From positions 1-42,456 of the forward strand of contig CAYPSR010000002.1 in NCBI GenBank assembly GCA_964413595.1: a stretch of 42,456 bases of DNA. Reading direction: 5' to 3'. The stretch comes from an uncultured Candidatus Saccharibacteria bacterium (GTDB lineage: Bacteria; Patescibacteriota; UBA1384; DATEAH01; CAYPSR01). Below are positions 1,848 to 42,456 of the stretch, piece after piece (the first letter of the stretch is position 1; every line of letters begins with the position of its first letter). Below the pieces are notes generated by a model, which was not told the DNA's origin, did no database searches, and was given only the letters and a program-made list of their open reading frames with translations. Both the position numbers and the translations under genes were made by a program.

Positions 1848-2993
<1,146 letters not shown>

Positions 2994-3002
2994 AACAAAC
3001 CA

Positions 3003-3068
3003 TCTTGTTACACCTCGTAGGTGCGTTTTTTAGCCTCAGGATTTGTCTTGTTACACCTCGTAGGTGCG
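3003..3068 (+). repeat. Two 23-bp direct repeats, each with a small hairpin
   Basis: tcttgttaCACCTcgtAGGTGcg at 3003-3025 and 3046-3068. The first copy is followed by TTTTTT, so it may act as the tgt terminator. Confidence 0.6.
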
Positions 3069-3096
3069 AGTAGATGGTTAGACTTTATTTTTAATC

Positions 3097-3126
3097 TTGA
3101 CACCTTATAATCTTCGGGTCTATTAT
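3097..3126 (+). promoter_or_regulatory. Sigma70-like promoter for the R-M operon
   Basis: TTGACA-N18-TATTAT within the recurring tcTTGACAcc context. Confidence 0.45.
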
Positions 3127-3262
3127 GAGATAACAAATAAATAATTTCTTGATCTCTCAAAATTTATAAACTTATTGGGATTTGATGAAGAAATAAAGGA
3201 TTTGATTTTTGGGACTAAAAGAAATAAGATTGAATTAATAACTCGAAAATAAAATAATTACT

Positions 3263-4534
3263 ATGAAGCAAAAAATTATATCTGATTTTAGTAAGGTTAT
3301 GATTGATTATTCATGGTCTTTTTCTGATAAAACTAGAAAAGATACGGCTTATATTACGCACGGTTACCATCGCTACCCTGCAAAATTTATTCCTCAAATA
3401 GTTTCTCGTTTAGCAAAAAAATACACCAAAGAAGATGATTTAATTGTTGATCCTTTTGGCGGTTGTGGCACAACTCTTGTTGAATCAAAAGTAATGGGAC
3501 GGCTATCTGTTGGCGTTGATATAAACCCTGTTGCTGTTTTGATTACTAAAGCAAAAATTACTCCAATTGATCCAGAAAAAATTGAAAAAGCATTAATGAT
3601 ACTACAAAAAAAACTAGACACATATAGCAAAGATATAAAGATACAAACGCCCAAACACGAAAGAATTGATTATTGGTTTAAGCCGGAAGAAAAAAGAAAA
3701 CTTGCTTTTATTTTTGCTGAAATTTCAAAATTAAAAAATCAAGACATTAGAGATTTTTTTTATTGTGGATTTTCTAACATTTTGAAAAATTGTTCAATTT
3801 GGCTACAAAAAAGTAATAAGCCAACAAGAGATTTGAATAAAAAACCTGCCGACCCGATACAAACTTTTTATAGGCAGATTAAAATGATGATGAGGGGAAA
3901 CGCTCGTTTTTATGAATTGTCAAAAGAAAAAAAACATTTTAAAATATCAAGCCAAGTTTATTGCACAGACGCAAGAACAATTCCAGTTAAAGATAATTCT
4001 GTTAGTTTAATTATTACCTCACCTCCCTATGTTACTTCCTACGAATATGCTGATTTGCACCAATTAACTGCTTTGTGGATGGGACATACAAAGAATTTAA
4101 GTGTTTTTCGTAAAAGATTTATTGGCACTTCCTATCACAGCAAAGAATATTTGGTTTTAAATAGTACGCTTGCTGAAAAAATAAGAAATGAACTATTGAA
4201 AAAAGACAGAAAAACTGCGGAGGAAGTTTCGGCCTATTTTAGCGAGATGAATCAAGTTTTTGTAGAAATGAAAAGAGTTTTAAAAGGGGGTGGAAAAACC
4301 TGCATAGTTATTGGAAATACAAGCTTAAAAGGAGTTAAAATATTAAATGCTGAAGTTTTTGCTGAGCAATTACAAAATTTAGGATTGAAAATTGCTGATA
4401 TTATTAAAAGAGAAATTCCGTCAAAAAATCTACCAACTGCCAGAGATAAAAAAACAGGCAGATTTGCGAAAATCAGCGATAAAAATAAGGTATCTGCTTA
4501 TCCTACAGAGTATATATTAATAATGGAGAAATAA
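3263..4534 (+). CDS. DNA amino-methyltransferase (N4-C or N6-A), alpha-like motif order
   Basis: Motif I DPFGGCGTT (aa 63) and motif IV TSPPY (aa ~253), with about 190 aa between them. Confidence 0.8.
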   Translation: MKQKIISDFSKVMIDYSWSFSDKTRKDTAYITHGYHRYPAKFIPQIVSRLAKKYTKEDDLIVDPFGGCGTTLVESKVMGRLSVGVDINPVAVLITKAKITPIDPEKIEKALMILQKKLDTYSKDIKIQTPKHERIDYWFKPEEKRKLAFIFAEISKLKNQDIRDFFYCGFSNILKNCSIWLQKSNKPTRDLNKKPADPIQTFYRQIKMMMRGNARFYELSKEKKHFKISSQVYCTDARTIPVKDNSVSLIITSPPYVTSYEYADLHQLTALWMGHTKNLSVFRKRFIGTSYHSKEYLVLNSTLAEKIRNELLKKDRKTAEEVSAYFSEMNQVFVEMKRVLKGGGKTCIVIGNTSLKGVKILNAEVFAEQLQNLGLKIADIIKREIPSKNLPTARDKKTGRFAKISDKNKVSAYPTEYILIMEK

Positions 4535-4538
4535 GAAT

Positions 4539-5207
4539 ATGACTATAAATGATTTAATCAAAATTTATGAAACGAAAAAGAAAAAATACGGTATGCAAGC
4601 ATACAGACACATTTCAAATGTTTTAAAAGAAGCAAAAGAGCAACACAAAAAAGACTTTATGGGTAGTGACCATGAACAATCATGGCGTGCTTTTAAAGGT
4701 AAAAATTTAGAAAAACTAATTGAGTATATTATTACTGACGAAGTTCTGGCTTTAGGGTTAAAAGTTGTTAATGGAAATAGTTTAGAGAGGACAAATAGTA
4801 CTAATTTATCGAAAGAATTAAGTTTGGTAAAAAGAAATTTGATCGTTGATTATGGCGAATTTGGTTCTCATTTACCCGATGTTGATTTAATTATTTATGA
4901 CCCAAAAGCAAGCAATGTCGTAGCTGTTTTATCAAGTAAAGTAACTTTACGAGAGAGAATTGCCCAAACAGGTTATTGGAAAATTAAACTTGCATCTGAT
5001 GAAGCGACTAAGCATATTAAGGTTTATTTTGTGACTCCCGATGAGGATGGAACTTTGACAATTAAAAAGCCAACAAAAAAAGGTAGAGCGATTGTTGAAG
5101 TAGATACAGACGGTAGTTATGTTTTAAGCGAAACAGATATTGAGGAAAGTAATAAAGTAAAGATGTTTGATAAATTTATTGATGATCTTAAAAAATTACT
5201 TAAATAA
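4539..5207 (+). CDS. Putative type II restriction endonuclease (PD-(D/E)xK-like)
   Basis: LPDVDLIIYD...VAVLSSKVTLRERIAQTGYW. Lies 4 nt downstream of the methyltransferase. Confidence 0.5.
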   Translation: MTINDLIKIYETKKKKYGMQAYRHISNVLKEAKEQHKKDFMGSDHEQSWRAFKGKNLEKLIEYIITDEVLALGLKVVNGNSLERTNSTNLSKELSLVKRNLIVDYGEFGSHLPDVDLIIYDPKASNVVAVLSSKVTLRERIAQTGYWKIKLASDEATKHIKVYFVTPDEDGTLTIKKPTKKGRAIVEVDTDGSYVLSETDIEESNKVKMFDKFIDDLKKLLK

Positions 5208-5208
5208 T

Positions 5209-5454
5209 ATGACACAATTACAAATAAAATTAGAGTGGAAAAAAGTTTTGGAAGAAACTCATAAAATTTATAATTTGGATTTATATAAGAATAAACTAAA
5301 ACGATATCAACAGATTGTTATACTTAGGGAGCTTCTTTTATTTTGCCAAGTTGTATTAGAAAAAATTAAAACAGGTAAAAATAATGCTTTTAACGAAACG
5401 ATTTATAAAAAAAATATAAATTTTTATTGTACACAAATAAAAAGATATGGCTAA
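5209..5454 (+). CDS. Small hypothetical protein in the R-M operon
   Basis: 81 codons. ATG lies 1 nt after the nuclease stop and the ORF overlaps the next gene by 8 nt. No motif recognised. Confidence 0.35.
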   Translation: MTQLQIKLEWKKVLEETHKIYNLDLYKNKLKRYQQIVILRELLLFCQVVLEKIKTGKNNAFNETIYKKNINFYCTQIKRYG

Positions 5455-6142
5455 AGATTTAATTTTAGAATCCACCACTCTTTGGGATTATCCAACTCAA
5501 AATTATGGCGATAAACCACATGGTAATAATATATACAACGGCGTTACGCCAGCTTTTGTAATTTGGAATTTACTTCAGCGATATACAAAAGAGGGTGATT
5601 TAGTAGTTGATCCGATGTGTGGAAGCGGAACTACAATCGATGTTGCAAAAGAATTGAAGCGCGAAGTGATAGGATATGATCTTAATGTTACAAGGCCTGA
5701 AATAATCAAAAACGATTCTCGGAAAATTCCGCTGAAAGATGATTCTGTTGATTTTGTTTTTATTGACTCGCCATATTCGGACAATATCAATTATTCTAAT
5801 GACAAAAAATGTATTGGAAAAATTTCGTGCGAAAAAACAGAATTTTATGACGAATTAGAAAAAGTCGCTTCTGAAATTGCTAGAATTTTAAAATCAGGAA
5901 AAGTGATGGGTTGGGTTATTGCAGATCAATGGATTAAAAAGAAATTTACAGCTGTTGGATTTTTACTTTGGCAAAGATTAGAAAAATATTTTGAACCAAT
6001 GGAAATAGTTTGCTTGACAAGACACAATCAAACATCAAATACTGGAATTTGGCACAGCAGGGCAAGGCAGTATAATTTTTATTTACGAGGTTTTAAATAT
6101 TTGTTTATAATGAAAAAGCCTTCAAATATAATTAAGAAATGA
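5447..6142 (+). CDS. Small SAM-dependent DNA (or RNA) methyltransferase, gamma-like motif order
   Basis: DPMCGSGTT (aa 55) and an atypical motif IV, FIDSPY (aa 105-110). Confidence 0.7.
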   Translation: MAKDLILESTTLWDYPTQNYGDKPHGNNIYNGVTPAFVIWNLLQRYTKEGDLVVDPMCGSGTTIDVAKELKREVIGYDLNVTRPEIIKNDSRKIPLKDDSVDFVFIDSPYSDNINYSNDKKCIGKISCEKTEFYDELEKVASEIARILKSGKVMGWVIADQWIKKKFTAVGFLLWQRLEKYFEPMEIVCLTRHNQTSNTGIWHSRARQYNFYLRGFKYLFIMKKPSNIIKK

Positions 6143-6807
6143 AAAAAATGAATAAACATGAAAAAGAATTTTGGGATCAATATAAAAGATGGTATCTAGA
6201 TGATATTGAGCGATGTTTTAAAAGTAGTGCTAATTTTGCCACAATGACCTTAATATTAACAACTATTGATTCTCTTGGTGGATTTTATAATGGATTAATA
6301 AAAACAAAAATAACAAAAATTTATAAGTGTAGCAGTTGTGAAGTGATCAAAAAAATAAAAAAGAAAAAATGGCTAGTGCCGTTGGGTGGTAAAAGATTAA
6401 AATTAGCAAAAGAGATCTATAATATTAAAGGGCATAGCTATGAAGTTTCTGGCAATCGTGATGTTTTTGTGAATTTTATAAAAAACTATATGAATAACTT
6501 CTATCAAAAAGTATTACAAGGTACAAAAGAAAAGCGAGCAGTGGAAATTCTTTATTCACACTTTCGAAATGGGTTTGTTCATGAGGGTGGGCCGAAGTTC
6601 GGAACAGGAATATATAAAAGTGATTCCTCGGAGTTATTTAAGCCATATCCTAAAATAGGAATTTTTATGGCAATAAACCTAACTTCTTTTTACAAGTATT
6701 TTAAAAATGCTTTTGCTGATTACGAAAATGATTTATTTGACATAAAACAACCAGAGAGATTAGATAGGTGGAGAGTAAGAATGAATTATTTATTAGGATT
6801 CAAGTGA
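6139..6807 (+). CDS. Hypothetical protein with HEPN-like Rx4H motif
   Basis: ATGA overlap with the upstream methyltransferase. ILYSHFRNGFVHEG (R-N-x3-H) in a helical-looking protein. Confidence 0.35.
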   Translation: MKKMNKHEKEFWDQYKRWYLDDIERCFKSSANFATMTLILTTIDSLGGFYNGLIKTKITKIYKCSSCEVIKKIKKKKWLVPLGGKRLKLAKEIYNIKGHSYEVSGNRDVFVNFIKNYMNNFYQKVLQGTKEKRAVEILYSHFRNGFVHEGGPKFGTGIYKSDSSELFKPYPKIGIFMAINLTSFYKYFKNAFADYENDLFDIKQPERLDRWRVRMNYLLGFK

Positions 6808-6808
6808 T

Positions 6809-6961
6809 ATATTTTCTTGACCCTATGAATCTTATCTTTCGCCTTTTGGGGAAAAAATAAGAAAGTAGCCTCAATCGCCTGCTGGCTCTTGAGGAGATTC
6901 CTCGCCAGTCGTTCGGAATGACAATATTTCTTGACCCTTCTAATCTTGTCTTTTGCCTTTT
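6809..6961. repeat. Pair of ~38-bp direct repeats (period 115 bp)
   Basis: atattttcttgaccctatgaatcttatctttcgcctttt versus atatttcttgacccttctaatcttgtcttttgcctttt. Confidence 0.7.
6894..6922 (-). repeat. GTCATTCC...GGAATCTC hairpin repeat unit
   Basis: The reverse complement reads GTCATTCCGAACGACTGGCGAGGAATCTC. Confidence 0.65.
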
Positions 6962-9406: not shown

Positions 9407-9495
9407 TTAACTCTTAAAAGTCTAATATGTATGGGACGGATACAGGGTCTTGCAAAATAGATTTTAAAATCATATTATAGAATTAAGGAGATAAT

Positions 9496-39506: not shown

Positions 39507-41645
39507 ATGAATATAACTTTATCAAGTCTAAAAAAACTTGTAGATATTAAAATGCCAATTAATAAACTCGCGGAAGAATTAACCCGAGTTGGTTTAGAAG
39601 TTGAAAAGATTTTGGATTATAAAGGAGAACGAGTATTAAAGCTTGATATTTCTCCAAATCGTTATGATTGTCTGTCAGCACTGGGAATTTCCAGAGAAAT
39701 TACCATGCTTGAAAAAAACAAGATTAAATTAGAAGAAGTTAAAATTCAGGAATCAGATATTGAAAAAAAGCTACAAGTTGAAATCGAAGATAAAGAAATT
39801 GTTCCAAAATATTATTATTATATAATCGATAATATCAAAATTTCAGAGTCACCAAAATGGATGCAAAAAGAACTAGAAGCATATGGCTTTCGTGTGCTTA
39901 ATAACATTATTGATATTACTAATTATGTGATGATTATGCTTGGCCAGCCACTTCACGCTTTTGATTATGATAAAGTTGTTTCCAATAACCCAGAAAAGAA
40001 AATTATTGTCCGACGTGGTAAAAAAGGCGAAACAGTTGCAACATTAGACGGTAAAATATGGGATGTTGATGAAAAAACAATTGTTATTTCAAAACCAAAC
40101 GGAGAGTTGATCGATTTGGCAGGAATTATGGGTGGATTAAAATCTGAGATAGATGCAAATACGAAAACTATTGTTTTGCAAGCCGCACTTATGGATTCAA
40201 AATTAATTCGCACAACTAAAAAAAGACTTAATCATGATACGGAAGCAGCTTATAGATACGAGCGAGGCGTTGACCATTCAATGGTAAAATATTCTTTAAA
40301 ATATGCAGCTAAATTAATTCAAGACTTGGCAAACGGGAAAGTTGTTAAATTAAATAAAATTAATAATATAAAATATCCTACAAAGGTAATTAAAACATCA
40401 TCAATACAATTATCAGATTTTGTTGGACACAGGTTTACATCAGAAGAAATTAAAAAGATGTTAGAATTACTTGGATTTGATGTTGAAACTGATTCTGAAA
40501 ACATAACCATAACTATTCCGACGTGGCGCGAGCTCGATATTAATTGGTGGCAAGATATTGCCGAAGAGATAATCCGGGTTTATGATATTTCAAAAATCAA
40601 ACTCATTCCGATTCAGCATGATTCTGCGTTAATTCAGCGTAATTCTGCAATTCTGTCAAATTGGGAGAAAAAAGAGGTAATAAAAGATGAGTTATTTAAG
40701 CTTGGACTAACAGAAGTTTACAATTATTCATTTATTGGTGATGATGATTTGGAAAAATGTAAAAGTTCAACAGGCGAAGTTGATAAAAAAGACCTATTTG
40801 AGCTGGCTTATCCTTTGTCGCCAGAATTAAAATATTTAAGACAAAACCTGGCAATTGGTTTTTTAAAAACTATTGCTAAAAATCCTCAGGCAGACAAAAT
40901 TGAGATTTTTGAAATTGAAAACGTTTTTCAAAAACTAAACTGTCATCCTGAACTAGATTCAGGATCTCATATAAAGCAAATTTCTGAGATTCCGGATCAA
41001 GCCTGGAATGACAATAATTCCAACAGTGAATCAACGAGAATTGGGATTGCTTGCGCTGGAGAGAAATCACAAAATGCAAGTGATTTGATGACAAAATTAA
41101 TAAAAGTTTTTGGAATTAATTGTCATTCCGACGAGCATAACGAGGAAAAATCCCAGAATCAAAATGAGATTTCTCACTTTGTTCGAAATGACATGTTAAA
41201 AGTTTTTAATATAAATCCTGAACTTTTAAAACAATATAAAATTAGAAAGCCTAATGTTTCAATTTGTGAAATAGATTTTGGTGATTTTTTGAAATATGCG
41301 AAGTTTGATGGCAAGTCATTAAATTGGCACCCATCATCAAAATCTCAATATCGTGACCTATCACAATTTCCAACCGTCGAACGCGACCTAGCAATTATAT
41401 TAGACAGAAATATTGAAAATGAGAAAACCAGGCAAATAATTATGAGTACTTCTGACCAAATAATAAGTTCTGACCTATTTGATGAATTTGCAAATGATAA
41501 GTTTGGTGAAAACAAAAAATCTGTTGCTTATCATATTTCTATGCAATCACCTGATCACACCTTGACATCTTCTGAGGCTGAGAATATAATTAAGAAAATT
41601 TTAGAAAATATTAAAAATGAACTTGGGGGAGAGTTAAGGAGATAA
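39507..41645 (+). CDS. pheT: Phenylalanine-tRNA ligase beta subunit (no OB tRNA-binding domain; carries repeat insertions)
   Basis: DISPNRYDCLSALGISREI, B3/4 region LHAFDYDK, C-terminal FDX-ACB-like LSQFPTVERDLAII...SVAYHISMQ. Confidence 0.92.
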   Translation: MNITLSSLKKLVDIKMPINKLAEELTRVGLEVEKILDYKGERVLKLDISPNRYDCLSALGISREITMLEKNKIKLEEVKIQESDIEKKLQVEIEDKEIVPKYYYYIIDNIKISESPKWMQKELEAYGFRVLNNIIDITNYVMIMLGQPLHAFDYDKVVSNNPEKKIIVRRGKKGETVATLDGKIWDVDEKTIVISKPNGELIDLAGIMGGLKSEIDANTKTIVLQAALMDSKLIRTTKKRLNHDTEAAYRYERGVDHSMVKYSLKYAAKLIQDLANGKVVKLNKINNIKYPTKVIKTSSIQLSDFVGHRFTSEEIKKMLELLGFDVETDSENITITIPTWRELDINWWQDIAEEIIRVYDISKIKLIPIQHDSALIQRNSAILSNWEKKEVIKDELFKLGLTEVYNYSFIGDDDLEKCKSSTGEVDKKDLFELAYPLSPELKYLRQNLAIGFLKTIAKNPQADKIEIFEIENVFQKLNCHPELDSGSHIKQISEIPDQAWNDNNSNSESTRIGIACAGEKSQNASDLMTKLIKVFGINCHSDEHNEEKSQNQNEISHFVRNDMLKVFNINPELLKQYKIRKPNVSICEIDFGDFLKYAKFDGKSLNWHPSSKSQYRDLSQFPTVERDLAIILDRNIENEKTRQIIMSTSDQIISSDLFDEFANDKFGENKKSVAYHISMQSPDHTLTSSEAENIIKKILENIKNELGGELRR
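40942..41012. repeat. Two GTCATYC-type hairpin units in-frame within pheT
   Basis: GTCATCCTGAActagaTTCAGGATCTC (40942-40968) and the inverted unit GAGATTCCGGATCAAGCCTGGAATGAC (40986-41012). Confidence 0.75.
41122..41192. repeat. Two more hairpin units in-frame within pheT
   Basis: GTCATTCCGACGAGCATAACGAGGAAAAATCCC (41122-41153) and GAGATTTCTCACTTTGTTCGAAATGAC (41166-41192). Confidence 0.7.
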
Positions 41646-41648
41646 CAA

Positions 41649-42425
41649 ATGGACGAAAGGTGTGTTGAAAAAAAAGATGCTGGTGATGTAGAAATCAGAA
41701 GACAAAGACAAAAAGAAATCGATTTAGTTTTGCCACGCGAGTTTACTCATGACCCGGTTTATATGTGCGAAAGATTAATGATAATCGCTGAATTGTATCA
41801 ATTTGTATTTATGCAAATGCCACAGATAAGCGATCAAAGTAATCCCGAATTTCTAGAAAAATCTCAGAAAAATATTGTTGATTATAATGCACTTTATACT
41901 GCGTTTACGTCTTTCAGGGGTGTGCCTCAAGCAACATCGCATGCTCAATATAATACTCACTCACAAATAGCGTGTACCAAAATTGATCCCAGTTTAAAAT
42001 TTGAAACAACTCTTGATGCCTGTCAATATGCAACTGAAATGGTTTGTCACTTACGAGAAGATACAAGCATCAATAAACAACTAGAACTAGCACAAGCCAT
42101 TGTGGTTTATGACCCTAAAATGAATTATCTTTTAGAATTTGCTGGTAGATATAGTATAAATTATCTAAATATTTTACAAAGACGCCTGCGGGGATTACAG
42201 GATATTCAAAATAAAACTCATATGCCTATTATACAGCCTGACGGTTTTAATGAAACAGAAGCCTTGCAACGTGATTTAAATGATGCAATTATGCAAATGC
42301 CATATAATTTACAAACATGCCAAATGATTAAGGCAGGTTTTGAGCCGAGATTAATAGCTTATAATGCTTGTTCGGGAACAATATTTGTTGGCGATGCGTG
42401 GAAATATCATAAAAGTGAAGAATAA
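41649..42425 (+). CDS. ORFan hypothetical protein (258 aa)
   Basis: Starts 3 nt after pheT. Rich in Q/C/M/H/Y. No motif recognised. Bracketed by a duplicated pheT 3' segment. Confidence 0.6.
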   Translation: MDERCVEKKDAGDVEIRRQRQKEIDLVLPREFTHDPVYMCERLMIIAELYQFVFMQMPQISDQSNPEFLEKSQKNIVDYNALYTAFTSFRGVPQATSHAQYNTHSQIACTKIDPSLKFETTLDACQYATEMVCHLREDTSINKQLELAQAIVVYDPKMNYLLEFAGRYSINYLNILQRRLRGLQDIQNKTHMPIIQPDGFNETEALQRDLNDAIMQMPYNLQTCQMIKAGFEPRLIAYNACSGTIFVGDAWKYHKSEE

Positions 42426-42428
42426 ATA

Positions 42429-42456
42429 TTAAGAAAATTTTAGAAAATATTAAAAA
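42429..42456 (+). repeat. Second copy of the pheT 3' segment (runs off the window)
   Basis: ttaagaaaattttagaaaatattaaaaa is identical to 41591-41618 inside pheT. Confidence 0.85.

Follow-up and report, generated by a model that had tools for sequence, protein, structure and literature searches.

The DNA analysed here, 42,456 nt of contig CAYPSR010000002.1 from an uncultured Candidatus Saccharibacteria bacterium (the window), runs at its right end through pheT into an open reading frame (ORF) of 258 codons, ORF258, which is followed by the start of a second copy of the pheT 3' end. An independent MEGAHIT contig of 9.5 kb (L001), with 2 mismatches over the 2174 nt that it has in common with the window, extends 7.4 kb further, bringing the visible sequence to 49.8 kb. 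Between pheT and aspS we observe five mutually unrelated, promoterless ORFans (258, 176, 177, 143 and 42+123 amino acids), all in one orientation, and a sixth gene, ORF_X, is found at this locus in another contig (L003). It is very probable that copies of the final ~57 nt of pheT punctuate these five or six unrelated single-gene ORFan cassettes in the pheT-aspS junction of this Candidate Phyla Radiation (CPR) bacterium.

Features of the locus in window coordinates:
39507..41645, + strand: pheT, phenylalanyl-tRNA synthetase beta chain, 712 amino acids (Pfam B3_4, B5, tRNA_synthFbeta, FDX-ACB); source of the repeat
41562..41590, + strand: predicted sigma-70-type consensus promoter inside the pheT coding sequence (TTGACA 41562-41567, 17 nt, TATAAT 41585-41590)
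41589..41645, + strand: tail copy 1, 57 nt (ATTAAG…GGAGATAA), read directly, repeat family D2; encodes IKKILENIKNELGGELRR followed by stop, with stops in three frames and the Shine-Dalgarno (SD) sequence for the next gene
41634..41645, + strand: SD block TTAAGGAGATAA, inclusive of the pheT stop codon, 3 nt ahead of the ORF258 ATG
41649..42425, + strand: ORF258, soluble acidic ORFan and pheT-proximal cassette, all-helical according to a low-confidence model
42428..42456, + strand: tail copy 2, truncated here by the end of the window; complete in L001 (2146-2202, 54/57 versus copy 1), where A-ATG of ORF176 follows

The cassette array and its repeated leader

The array in L001 reads ORF258, tail copy 2, ORFs of 176, 177, 143 and 42+123 amino acids (ORF176, ORF177, ORF143, ORF42 and ORF123), two inverted-repeat elements and aspS, and the 5.4 kb downstream hold aspS and the genes of a conserved 426-amino-acid protein, a penicillin-binding protein (PBP) and FtsX. 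Our initial annotation, made on the window, had described a 28-nt direct repeat near the pheT 3' end. This repeat is real, exact and non-random, with exactly two exact occurrences in the window (41590-41617 and 42429-42456), no others there even when 3 mismatches are allowed and no occurrence in 100 dinucleotide-preserving shuffles, although the first copy lies one base to the left of where it had been placed (41590-41617, not 41591-41618). Adding the A in front of it extends the exact repeat to 29 nt (41589-41617 and 42428-42456). The loose similarity that had been noticed to the left of both copies exists as well but is weak (AGAATATA-ATT versus AGAATAAATATT), and the sequence between the copies consists, as described, of the pheT end (…NELGGELRR, stop 41643-41645) and the 258-amino-acid ORF at 41649-42425.

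The repeat only appears to end at 29 nt because the window ends there. In L001, copy 2 runs on to …GAGTTAAGGAGATAA (full read ATTAAGAAAATTTTAGAAAATATTAAAAAaGAACTTGGGagcGAGTTAAGGAGATAA) and is identical to the pheT tail at 54/57 positions without gaps, or at 92% of 66 nt if one gap is allowed. Its 57 nt duplicate the final 19 codons of pheT together with the stop. Extending the sequence beyond 42456, as had been proposed, thus gives a duplication of 57 nt and not 28, together with the anticipated displaced pheT tail, which in the pheT frame still encodes IKKILENIKKELGSELRR followed by stop, whereas the recombinase envisaged as a possible neighbour was not found in the 5.4 kb downstream. A second proposal, to compare pheT 3' ends in relatives without the ORFan, is answered by the closest relative (P0003, with a pheT product 52% identical, the nearest in 5.8 billion proteins), where aspS begins 1 nt past the pheT stop. 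The roughly 2.9 kb with five ORFs is therefore, judged by sequence comparison, an insertion into the pheT-aspS junction.

The six contigs of this closest relative share with the present genome the neighbourhood GAPDH, PfkB, aldolase, rbfA, a 121-amino-acid protein, pheS, pheT, aspS, a roughly 407-amino-acid protein, PBP and ftsX, and the SD of its aspS lies within the last pheT codons (…aaaataAGGAGctaatATG). Since the SD is placed in the same way there, encoding the SD of the next gene in the pheT tail is an ancestral habit. Scans of metagenome and genome contig collections for pheT returned only the same Joint Genome Institute (JGI) contig plus outgroups of about 26-30% identity. With respect to more distant relatives, the order pheT-aspS-PBP is kept in L027, and L025 has pheT-PBP without aspS. 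In a further relative (L026, pheT 37% identical) an unrelated 2.7-kb insert occupies the pheT-aspS junction (L026 7290-10000; 49% GC versus 37% for pheT), with unannotated ORFs of 253 (minus strand) and 193 amino acids (plus strand) and an imperfect direct repeat of ~21 nt that flanks it and overlaps the pheT stop (GATTTTTGATCTCTAAAAATG / GAGTTTT-AACTTTAAAAATG). This insert hints, weakly, that the junction may have been hit repeatedly.

Further copies were sought by local alignment of the 79-nt pheT tail against the array leaders, with 992 windows as null (mean score 16.4, maximum 30). Copy 2, before ORF176, scores 105, copy 3, before ORF177, scores 54 with ~48 nt aligned, and copies 4 and 5, which consist of a 12-mer only, score 24. 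Tail-copy identity drops with distance from pheT, from 100% or 95% to roughly 80% over ~48 nt and then to the SD block alone. A candidate sixth remnant ahead of aspS (score 27, p ~0.02) coincides with an 11/12 promoter match and is treated as unproven.

The C-terminal tail of pheT aligns with the tails of its relatives. Copy 1 retains an N and a G, residues in common with P0003, where copy 2 has K and S, and we therefore take copy 1 to be the functional tail and copy 2 to be a drifting non-coding copy. All three frames of the 57 nt contain a stop codon: the pheT frame ends in its own TAA, and of the two alternative frames one has TAA at bases 3-5 and the other TAG at bases 14-16. The stop codon of ORF176 is the frame-2 TAG of tail copy 3. 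The last 12 nt are an optimal SD, and ahead of every array ORF this block is followed after 1-3 nt by ATG (one base after copy 2 in the case of ORF176). The same 12-mer precedes 5/5 array genes versus 2 of about 55 other genes (at 9483 and 32821, both as ribosome-binding site; Fisher p ~4e-6).

The predicted promoter overlaps the first two bases of the repeat with its -10 box and is the sole 12/12 sigma-70 site in the 49.8 kb on both strands. Because 15% of shuffles hold a perfect site somewhere, the promoter argument rests on position and not on existence; the chance of a perfect promoter falling within 30 nt of the repeat is roughly 1e-4. Sites matching at least 11/12 are enriched (10 versus 4.9±2.2) and several are intergenic, indicating that a sigma-70-type consensus is probably in use in this organism. 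No such promoter is found at the equivalent position of a relative (L010). Furthermore, copy 2 has no -35 box and a degraded -10 box, and only copy 1 is a candidate promoter copy. No terminator-like site was found on the + strand within the array, an 11/12 promoter match precedes aspS, and weaker promoter-like matches also occur inside the array.

At the distal end of the array, a frameshift at a C-run near L001 3965 divides the aspS-proximal cassette (L001 3862-4447) into ORF42 and ORF123. All 8 contigs (7 samples) that cover this cassette have the same split, which is therefore not a sequencing error but a fixed pseudogene or a programmed frameshift. Elements ending in TGTCATTCC / GGAATGACA lie between this last cassette and aspS (L001 4499-4600), with further copies at window 6915, 11975 and 24087; another GGAATGACA stands at L001 3952, just ahead of the frameshift, and is the inverted-repeat partner of L001 4488-4507. 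The aspS start chosen by the gene caller (L001 4576) reads through one of the inverted-repeat elements; in fact aspS probably starts at L001 4621, with MLKTHYV… like its counterpart in the relative.

Cassette proteins and strain variation

The ORF258 product finds only itself among 5.8 billion proteins (word-indexed search) and among 1.84 billion representatives (exhaustive phmmer); it has no match in Pfam, PADLOC or PDB, and its best PHROG match is non-significant (E 0.027). The single-sequence AlphaFold2 model from which a helical fold is predicted has a mean predicted local distance difference test score (pLDDT) of 39.9, and the chance of an open frame of 258 codons is ~7e-11. The L001 array ORFs show no significant match in Pfam, PHROG or PADLOC (three scans that excluded ORF_X), the PDB scans (which excluded ORF165) gave no match either, the 90% clusters of the array ORFs have 1-5 near-identical members each, and the partial ORF_X product has no entry in the exact-match protein collection. 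The ORFan status of ORF_X, ORF176, ORF177, ORF143 and ORF165 rests on these exact look-up clusters plus the Pfam, PHROG, PADLOC and PDB negatives. With respect to viral sources, blastn of the array against 50,697 phage records gave no match, and IMG/VR holds neither relatives of ORF258 or ORF_X nor the leader sequence. Rfam returned nothing credible in the array.

Third-position GC content (GC3) of the cassettes is 0.22-0.29, versus 0.22-0.23 for pheS and pheT, and their codon-adaptation score is 0.58-0.64 in frame versus 0.40-0.55 out of frame. The cassette ORFs are thus real coding sequence of native composition, adapted to this genome, with no foreign signature in GC3 or codon usage. Their products are soluble, mostly acidic (isoelectric points 4.4-6.5) and of similar size. 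In the population, single-nucleotide polymorphisms (SNPs) are more frequent in the cassettes than in the flanking genes, with 9 sites over 534 nt in ORF177, 5 over 432 nt in ORF143 and 0 over 440 nt in aspS, and the ratio of 11 nonsynonymous to 6 synonymous changes in the cassettes points to weak constraint. We consider the cassette proteins to be accessory, weakly constrained and, probably, co-expressed; a role in host or phage interaction is speculation.

ORF258 is present on five other contigs from five samples. Four contigs, each from a different sample (L001, L002, L004 and L005), run through pheT-ORF258-tail-ORF176 in this order, L003, which comes from a fifth sample, likewise crosses the junction of pheT and ORF258, and all contigs are at least 99.8% identical with each other and with the window over common regions. 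The spanning contigs comprise a JGI assembly (L002 and L006 are the same JGI contig) and European Nucleotide Archive (ENA) contigs named k141, presumably MEGAHIT k=141. In L003 (sample ERZ27248937), ORF258 is followed by a tail copy that is 57/57 identical to the pheT tail, by one base and then by ORF_X (MRKESTDSGAESESES…) in place of ORF176; ORF_X has at least 171 amino acids and runs off the contig. A second contig from the same sample (L016) starts at AAAAAGAACTTGGGAGCGAG…ATG-ORF176, which is the right half of a tail copy of the copy-2 type; the contig sets in at the end of the shared 29-mer, the point at which the window also stops. These contig ends fit an assembly break at a repeated, polymorphic site. 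On the 49.9-kb source contig, ORF258, ORF143, ORF42 and ORF123 are present, ORF176 is unrecorded and ORF177 appears only as a 5'-truncated 159-amino-acid product, and the source contig probably has a gap or unresolved sequence just past the window end. The distal array is the same in all 8 contigs (7 samples). Variation is thus confined to the pheT-proximal end, where the youngest-looking copy (100%) sits.

Explanations for the origin of the array

We lean towards explaining this anatomy by serial accretion and loss of single-gene cassettes, brought about by recombination among the copies of an expression module that stems from pheT. This module would be the pheT tail, with a promoter in pheT, a short leader carrying stops in three frames and an SD block 1-3 nt before the next ATG. 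Each new cassette would enter at the pheT end and duplicate the tail, by Campbell-type single crossover of a small circle made of one ORF and one tail copy; older cassettes would be shifted towards aspS while their leaders decay except for the SD, and recombination between neighbouring copies would delete cassettes or free them as circles. The copy between ORF258 and ORF_X (57/57) would then be the youngest and the copy ahead of ORF176 (54/57) older. The L001 arrangement may be derived, ORF_X having been lost by crossover in the common left part of the copies, and the opposite course, in which an ORF_X circle inserted into copy 2, fits just as well. In principle, no more than homologous recombination over 57 nt would be needed. 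Duplication of the junction would keep the pheT C terminus intact, end any ORF that runs into a copy and supply an SD to the displaced downstream gene, and we propose that insertions therefore survive between two essential, translationally coupled genes. We infer the order of events, the mechanism of recombination (homologous or through an unseen recombinase acting in trans), the activity of the promoter and any function of the cassettes.

Several points weigh against this explanation. The array occurs in one species only, in just two arrangements, and among the contigs of this species none has pheT joined directly to ORF176 or aspS (an empty site) and none reaches past ORF_X; the empty junction is observed solely in the 52%-identical relative. 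Copies 4 and 5 have in common only the 12-nt SD block, which is possibly just the optimal SD context of the genome, and the promoter inside pheT is a predicted one, a consensus match only. L003 could in principle be a mis-join across the 29-mer, and even then ORF_X would adjoin a perfect tail copy. In addition, the model covers the shuffling of cassettes and not the first attachment of a foreign ORF to a tail copy, and a recombinase in trans is possible, given that only 49.8 kb of an incomplete genome are visible.

The closest functional precedent for recombination between such modules would be the hyperplastic regions of T4-type phages, in which repeated promoter/terminator/SD cassettes (promoter-early stem-loop, PeSL) flank ORFans (Arbiol et al. 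2010, PMC2839356; Comeau et al. 2014, PMC4122927). Differences between close relatives there are insertions, deletions and replacements bounded by the cassettes, and by a mechanism that has been proposed and partly demonstrated, recombination between neighbouring cassettes gives ORFan mini-circles, which have been detected and would be able to re-insert (PMC2839356). Crossovers map between the -10 box and the SD (PMC2839356). The pheT locus is alike in that short repeated regulatory cassettes flank single ORFans and bound the differences in arrangement, and the PeSL crossover span from -10 to SD is the same span as that of the pheT-tail repeat. Here, however, an essential cellular gene has supplied the module from its coding 3' end, -35 and -10 boxes are confined to the first copy, no stem-loop terminator is present, and a single chromosomal locus of a CPR bacterium is concerned, unlike the genome-wide distribution in phage. 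By this analogy the locus would resemble PeSL systems more than an integrase-driven island, but it is not a member of them, as the composite of promoter and stem-loop is missing.

A more far-reaching proposal, which we regard as doubtful, is that this CPR lineage uses the pheT 3' end as a dedicated platform for gene capture and expression, in which an embedded promoter is combined with a portable leader that doubles as recombination substrate, and in which ORFans would enter as mini-circles beside the promoter and move outward with age. If this were so, the locus would in effect be an integron-like system without an integrase, or with one in trans, that makes strain-level ORFan diversity in a streamlined symbiont genome, and the L026 insert at the same junction would mark a lineage-wide hotspot.

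The initial annotation had read the locus as an att-like structure left by an integrative element. In this it was right that a duplicated pheT 3' end brackets an inserted ORFan, at a site that proves to be polymorphic; the kind of structure is a different one, a cassette array with no integrase evident and no discrete element. The more general form of this explanation, a site-specific element whose integrase targeted the pheT 3' end and whose repeats are attL and attR, or a decayed accretion of successive remnants of the type seen in cis-mobilizable elements (CIMEs), is in our estimate unlikely. It would account for direct repeats that stem from the target gene's 3' end (54/57 or 57/57), for polymorphism at the proximal site, for the independent GC-rich insert of L026 with its imperfect repeat of ~21 nt overlapping the pheT stop and for tandem copies with an age gradient, which compare with tandem accretion (PMC5704250) and with the partial-tRNA arrays of Prochlorococcus (10.1101/2020.12.28.424599). 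The initial annotation had found no integrase in the window, and indeed none is present among the ten large window ORFs screened against Pfam, nor is there an integrase or a fragment of one among the six cassette ORFs or in the 5.4 kb downstream. Each unit consists of one ORF of 0.4-0.8 kb, which begins 1-3 nt past the repeat, has native composition and codon usage and is without phage or viral matches, and the repeat is one of identity over the whole 57 nt up to the SD, not a short core with divergent arms. The ORF258 unit, one promoterless ORF of 0.8 kb, opens a series of five or six units whose preceding tail copies are more decayed from one to the next, and the structure fits a cassette array better than one integrative element with attL and attR.

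That the target is a protein-coding gene had been seen as unusual, but integration into the 3' ends of protein-coding genes is well documented for integrative and conjugative elements and integrative and mobilizable elements (PMC5704250), so that aspect is not new. Tandem accretion and CIMEs (ICESt1 family in fda, PMC5704250) and tycheposon islands (10.1101/2020.12.28.424599) resemble the pheT locus in that repeats of the target 3' end separate the inserts, newer units push older ones outward, and units may be without an integrase of their own. Their units, however, are kilobases long, come from integrase-bearing elements with recognisable remnants and have short att cores, whereas single ORFs of native composition are found here, with no integrase or remnant visible. 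With respect to what marks a CIME, flanking repeats are present, but neither a partner element nor leftovers of genes for integration or transfer are found in the 49.8 kb. A Xer/dif-module origin of the 29-mer, judged by eye only, was also rejected: there is no dif-like 11-6-11 dyad, and the homology is 57 nt in direct orientation.

We consider it improbable that the locus is an integron-like platform whose recombinase is encoded elsewhere, with the pheT tail serving as attI plus Pc and its copies as cassette recombination sites. As in integrons, a predicted promoter lies directly upstream of the insertion point, the single-gene cassettes are promoterless and in one orientation, many of them are ORFans, and the newest, variable cassettes are nearest the promoter. 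Here, however, no intI was seen among the ORFs screened in the 49.8 kb, pheS and pheT lie upstream, and the end of a housekeeping gene forms the platform. Copies 1-3 have no hairpin or imperfect-palindrome potential when folded as single-stranded DNA on both strands (z -0.9 to +0.4), in contrast to attC hairpins, and the repeat stands 5' of each ORF and bears its SD, unlike attC.

Displaced 3' copies of an upstream gene also pile up in tandem, and permit recombination, in the orphan toxin/immunity modules downstream of cdiA and rhs. The repeat there is the conserved coding region before a variable toxin tip, and cassettes replace the C terminus of the gene; at the pheT locus the cassettes stand as genes of their own and leave the pheT product unaltered.

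Tandem duplication of a unit of tail plus gene followed by divergence, giving a fast-evolving paralog family whose leaders are kept alike by selection or gene conversion, has an equally slim chance. Tandem same-strand genes with common leaders, raised polymorphism and weak constraint in the cassettes, and proteins that are all soluble, mostly acidic and of similar size would be expected of such a family. Smith-Waterman comparison with shuffles, however, gave a best z of 1.25 over the 15 cassette pairs including ORF_X (all z<1.3), BLASTP found nothing, and there is no DNA similarity among the cassettes outside the leaders. NPEF and L..NP…IE motifs that ORF_X, ORF143 and ORF258 seemed to have in common are at chance level. 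A non-coding leader 95-100% identical beside coding regions without residual similarity is incompatible with simple duplication and divergence, and a simple paralog array is excluded at the sequence level.

An assembly artefact, that is a chimeric join or collapsed repeat at the AT-rich low-complexity 29-mer, is highly improbable: the window ends and L016 begins exactly at the 29-mer end, and ORF176 and ORF177 are incompletely recorded on the source contig, but the four contigs from four samples that span the junction are concordant at 99.8% or more, and breaks at this site are expected from a real repeat plus strain variation.

Other repeats in the window and wider meaning

We observe two inverted-repeat elements of ~73-81 nt, similar to miniature inverted-repeat transposable elements (MITEs), in frame inside the pheT coding sequence, where they add about 27 and 24 residues that are missing from all relatives. 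The first (window ~40930-41020; termini TGTCATCC at 40941 and GGAATGACA at 41005-41013) is polymorphic, with an empty site NVFDK|IESTR in L004 that matches the NVFDK of the relative, and the second occupies 41121-41193 (TGTCATTCC … AATGACA). The elements described above between the last cassette and aspS, and those at window 6915, 11975 and 24087, have termini in common with these two. These inserts recall the palindromic elements of Rickettsia, which occur in coding genes.

A block of 23-51 nt (…CTATAGGGCATTTCGTGAGAAAGTG.CTAAGGA…) is repeated at the left end of the window, where it stands at or just before successive gene starts (955-1005, 1259-1309 and 2739-2761), and may be another duplicated leader or a conserved regulatory motif. 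Intergenic promoter-like blocks with two or three repeats (TCTTGACAC…TTATTGGGAT… and TTTCTTGACCC…) are found at 2944-3197 and 6813-6961, near 11/12 sigma-70 matches at 3097, 7030 and 7109. Between 3263 and 6807 lie two adjacent restriction-modification-like gene pairs, the first consisting of an N6/N4 DNA methylase (3263-4534) and a BsaWI-type endonuclease (4539-5207), the second of another methylase (5447-6142) and an unannotated ORF of 222 amino acids (6139-6807).

Genomes of CPR bacteria (Patescibacteria) are small and ORFan-rich and have few recognisable mobile elements, and the way in which they gain and replace accessory genes is largely unexplained. The pheT-aspS locus offers a concrete anatomy, in which unrelated genes lie between two essential, normally coupled aminoacyl-tRNA synthetase genes, a 57-nt module would preserve the translation of the neighbours, and gene turnover can be seen between co-occurring strains. 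Since short-read assemblies are interrupted by such repeats right at the variable genes, arrays of this type are probably under-reported in metagenome-assembled genomes. If recombination between the modules is indeed what shapes the locus, it would extend the regulatory-cassette shuffling of T4-type phages to a cellular chromosome and would show how essential operons tolerate insertions.

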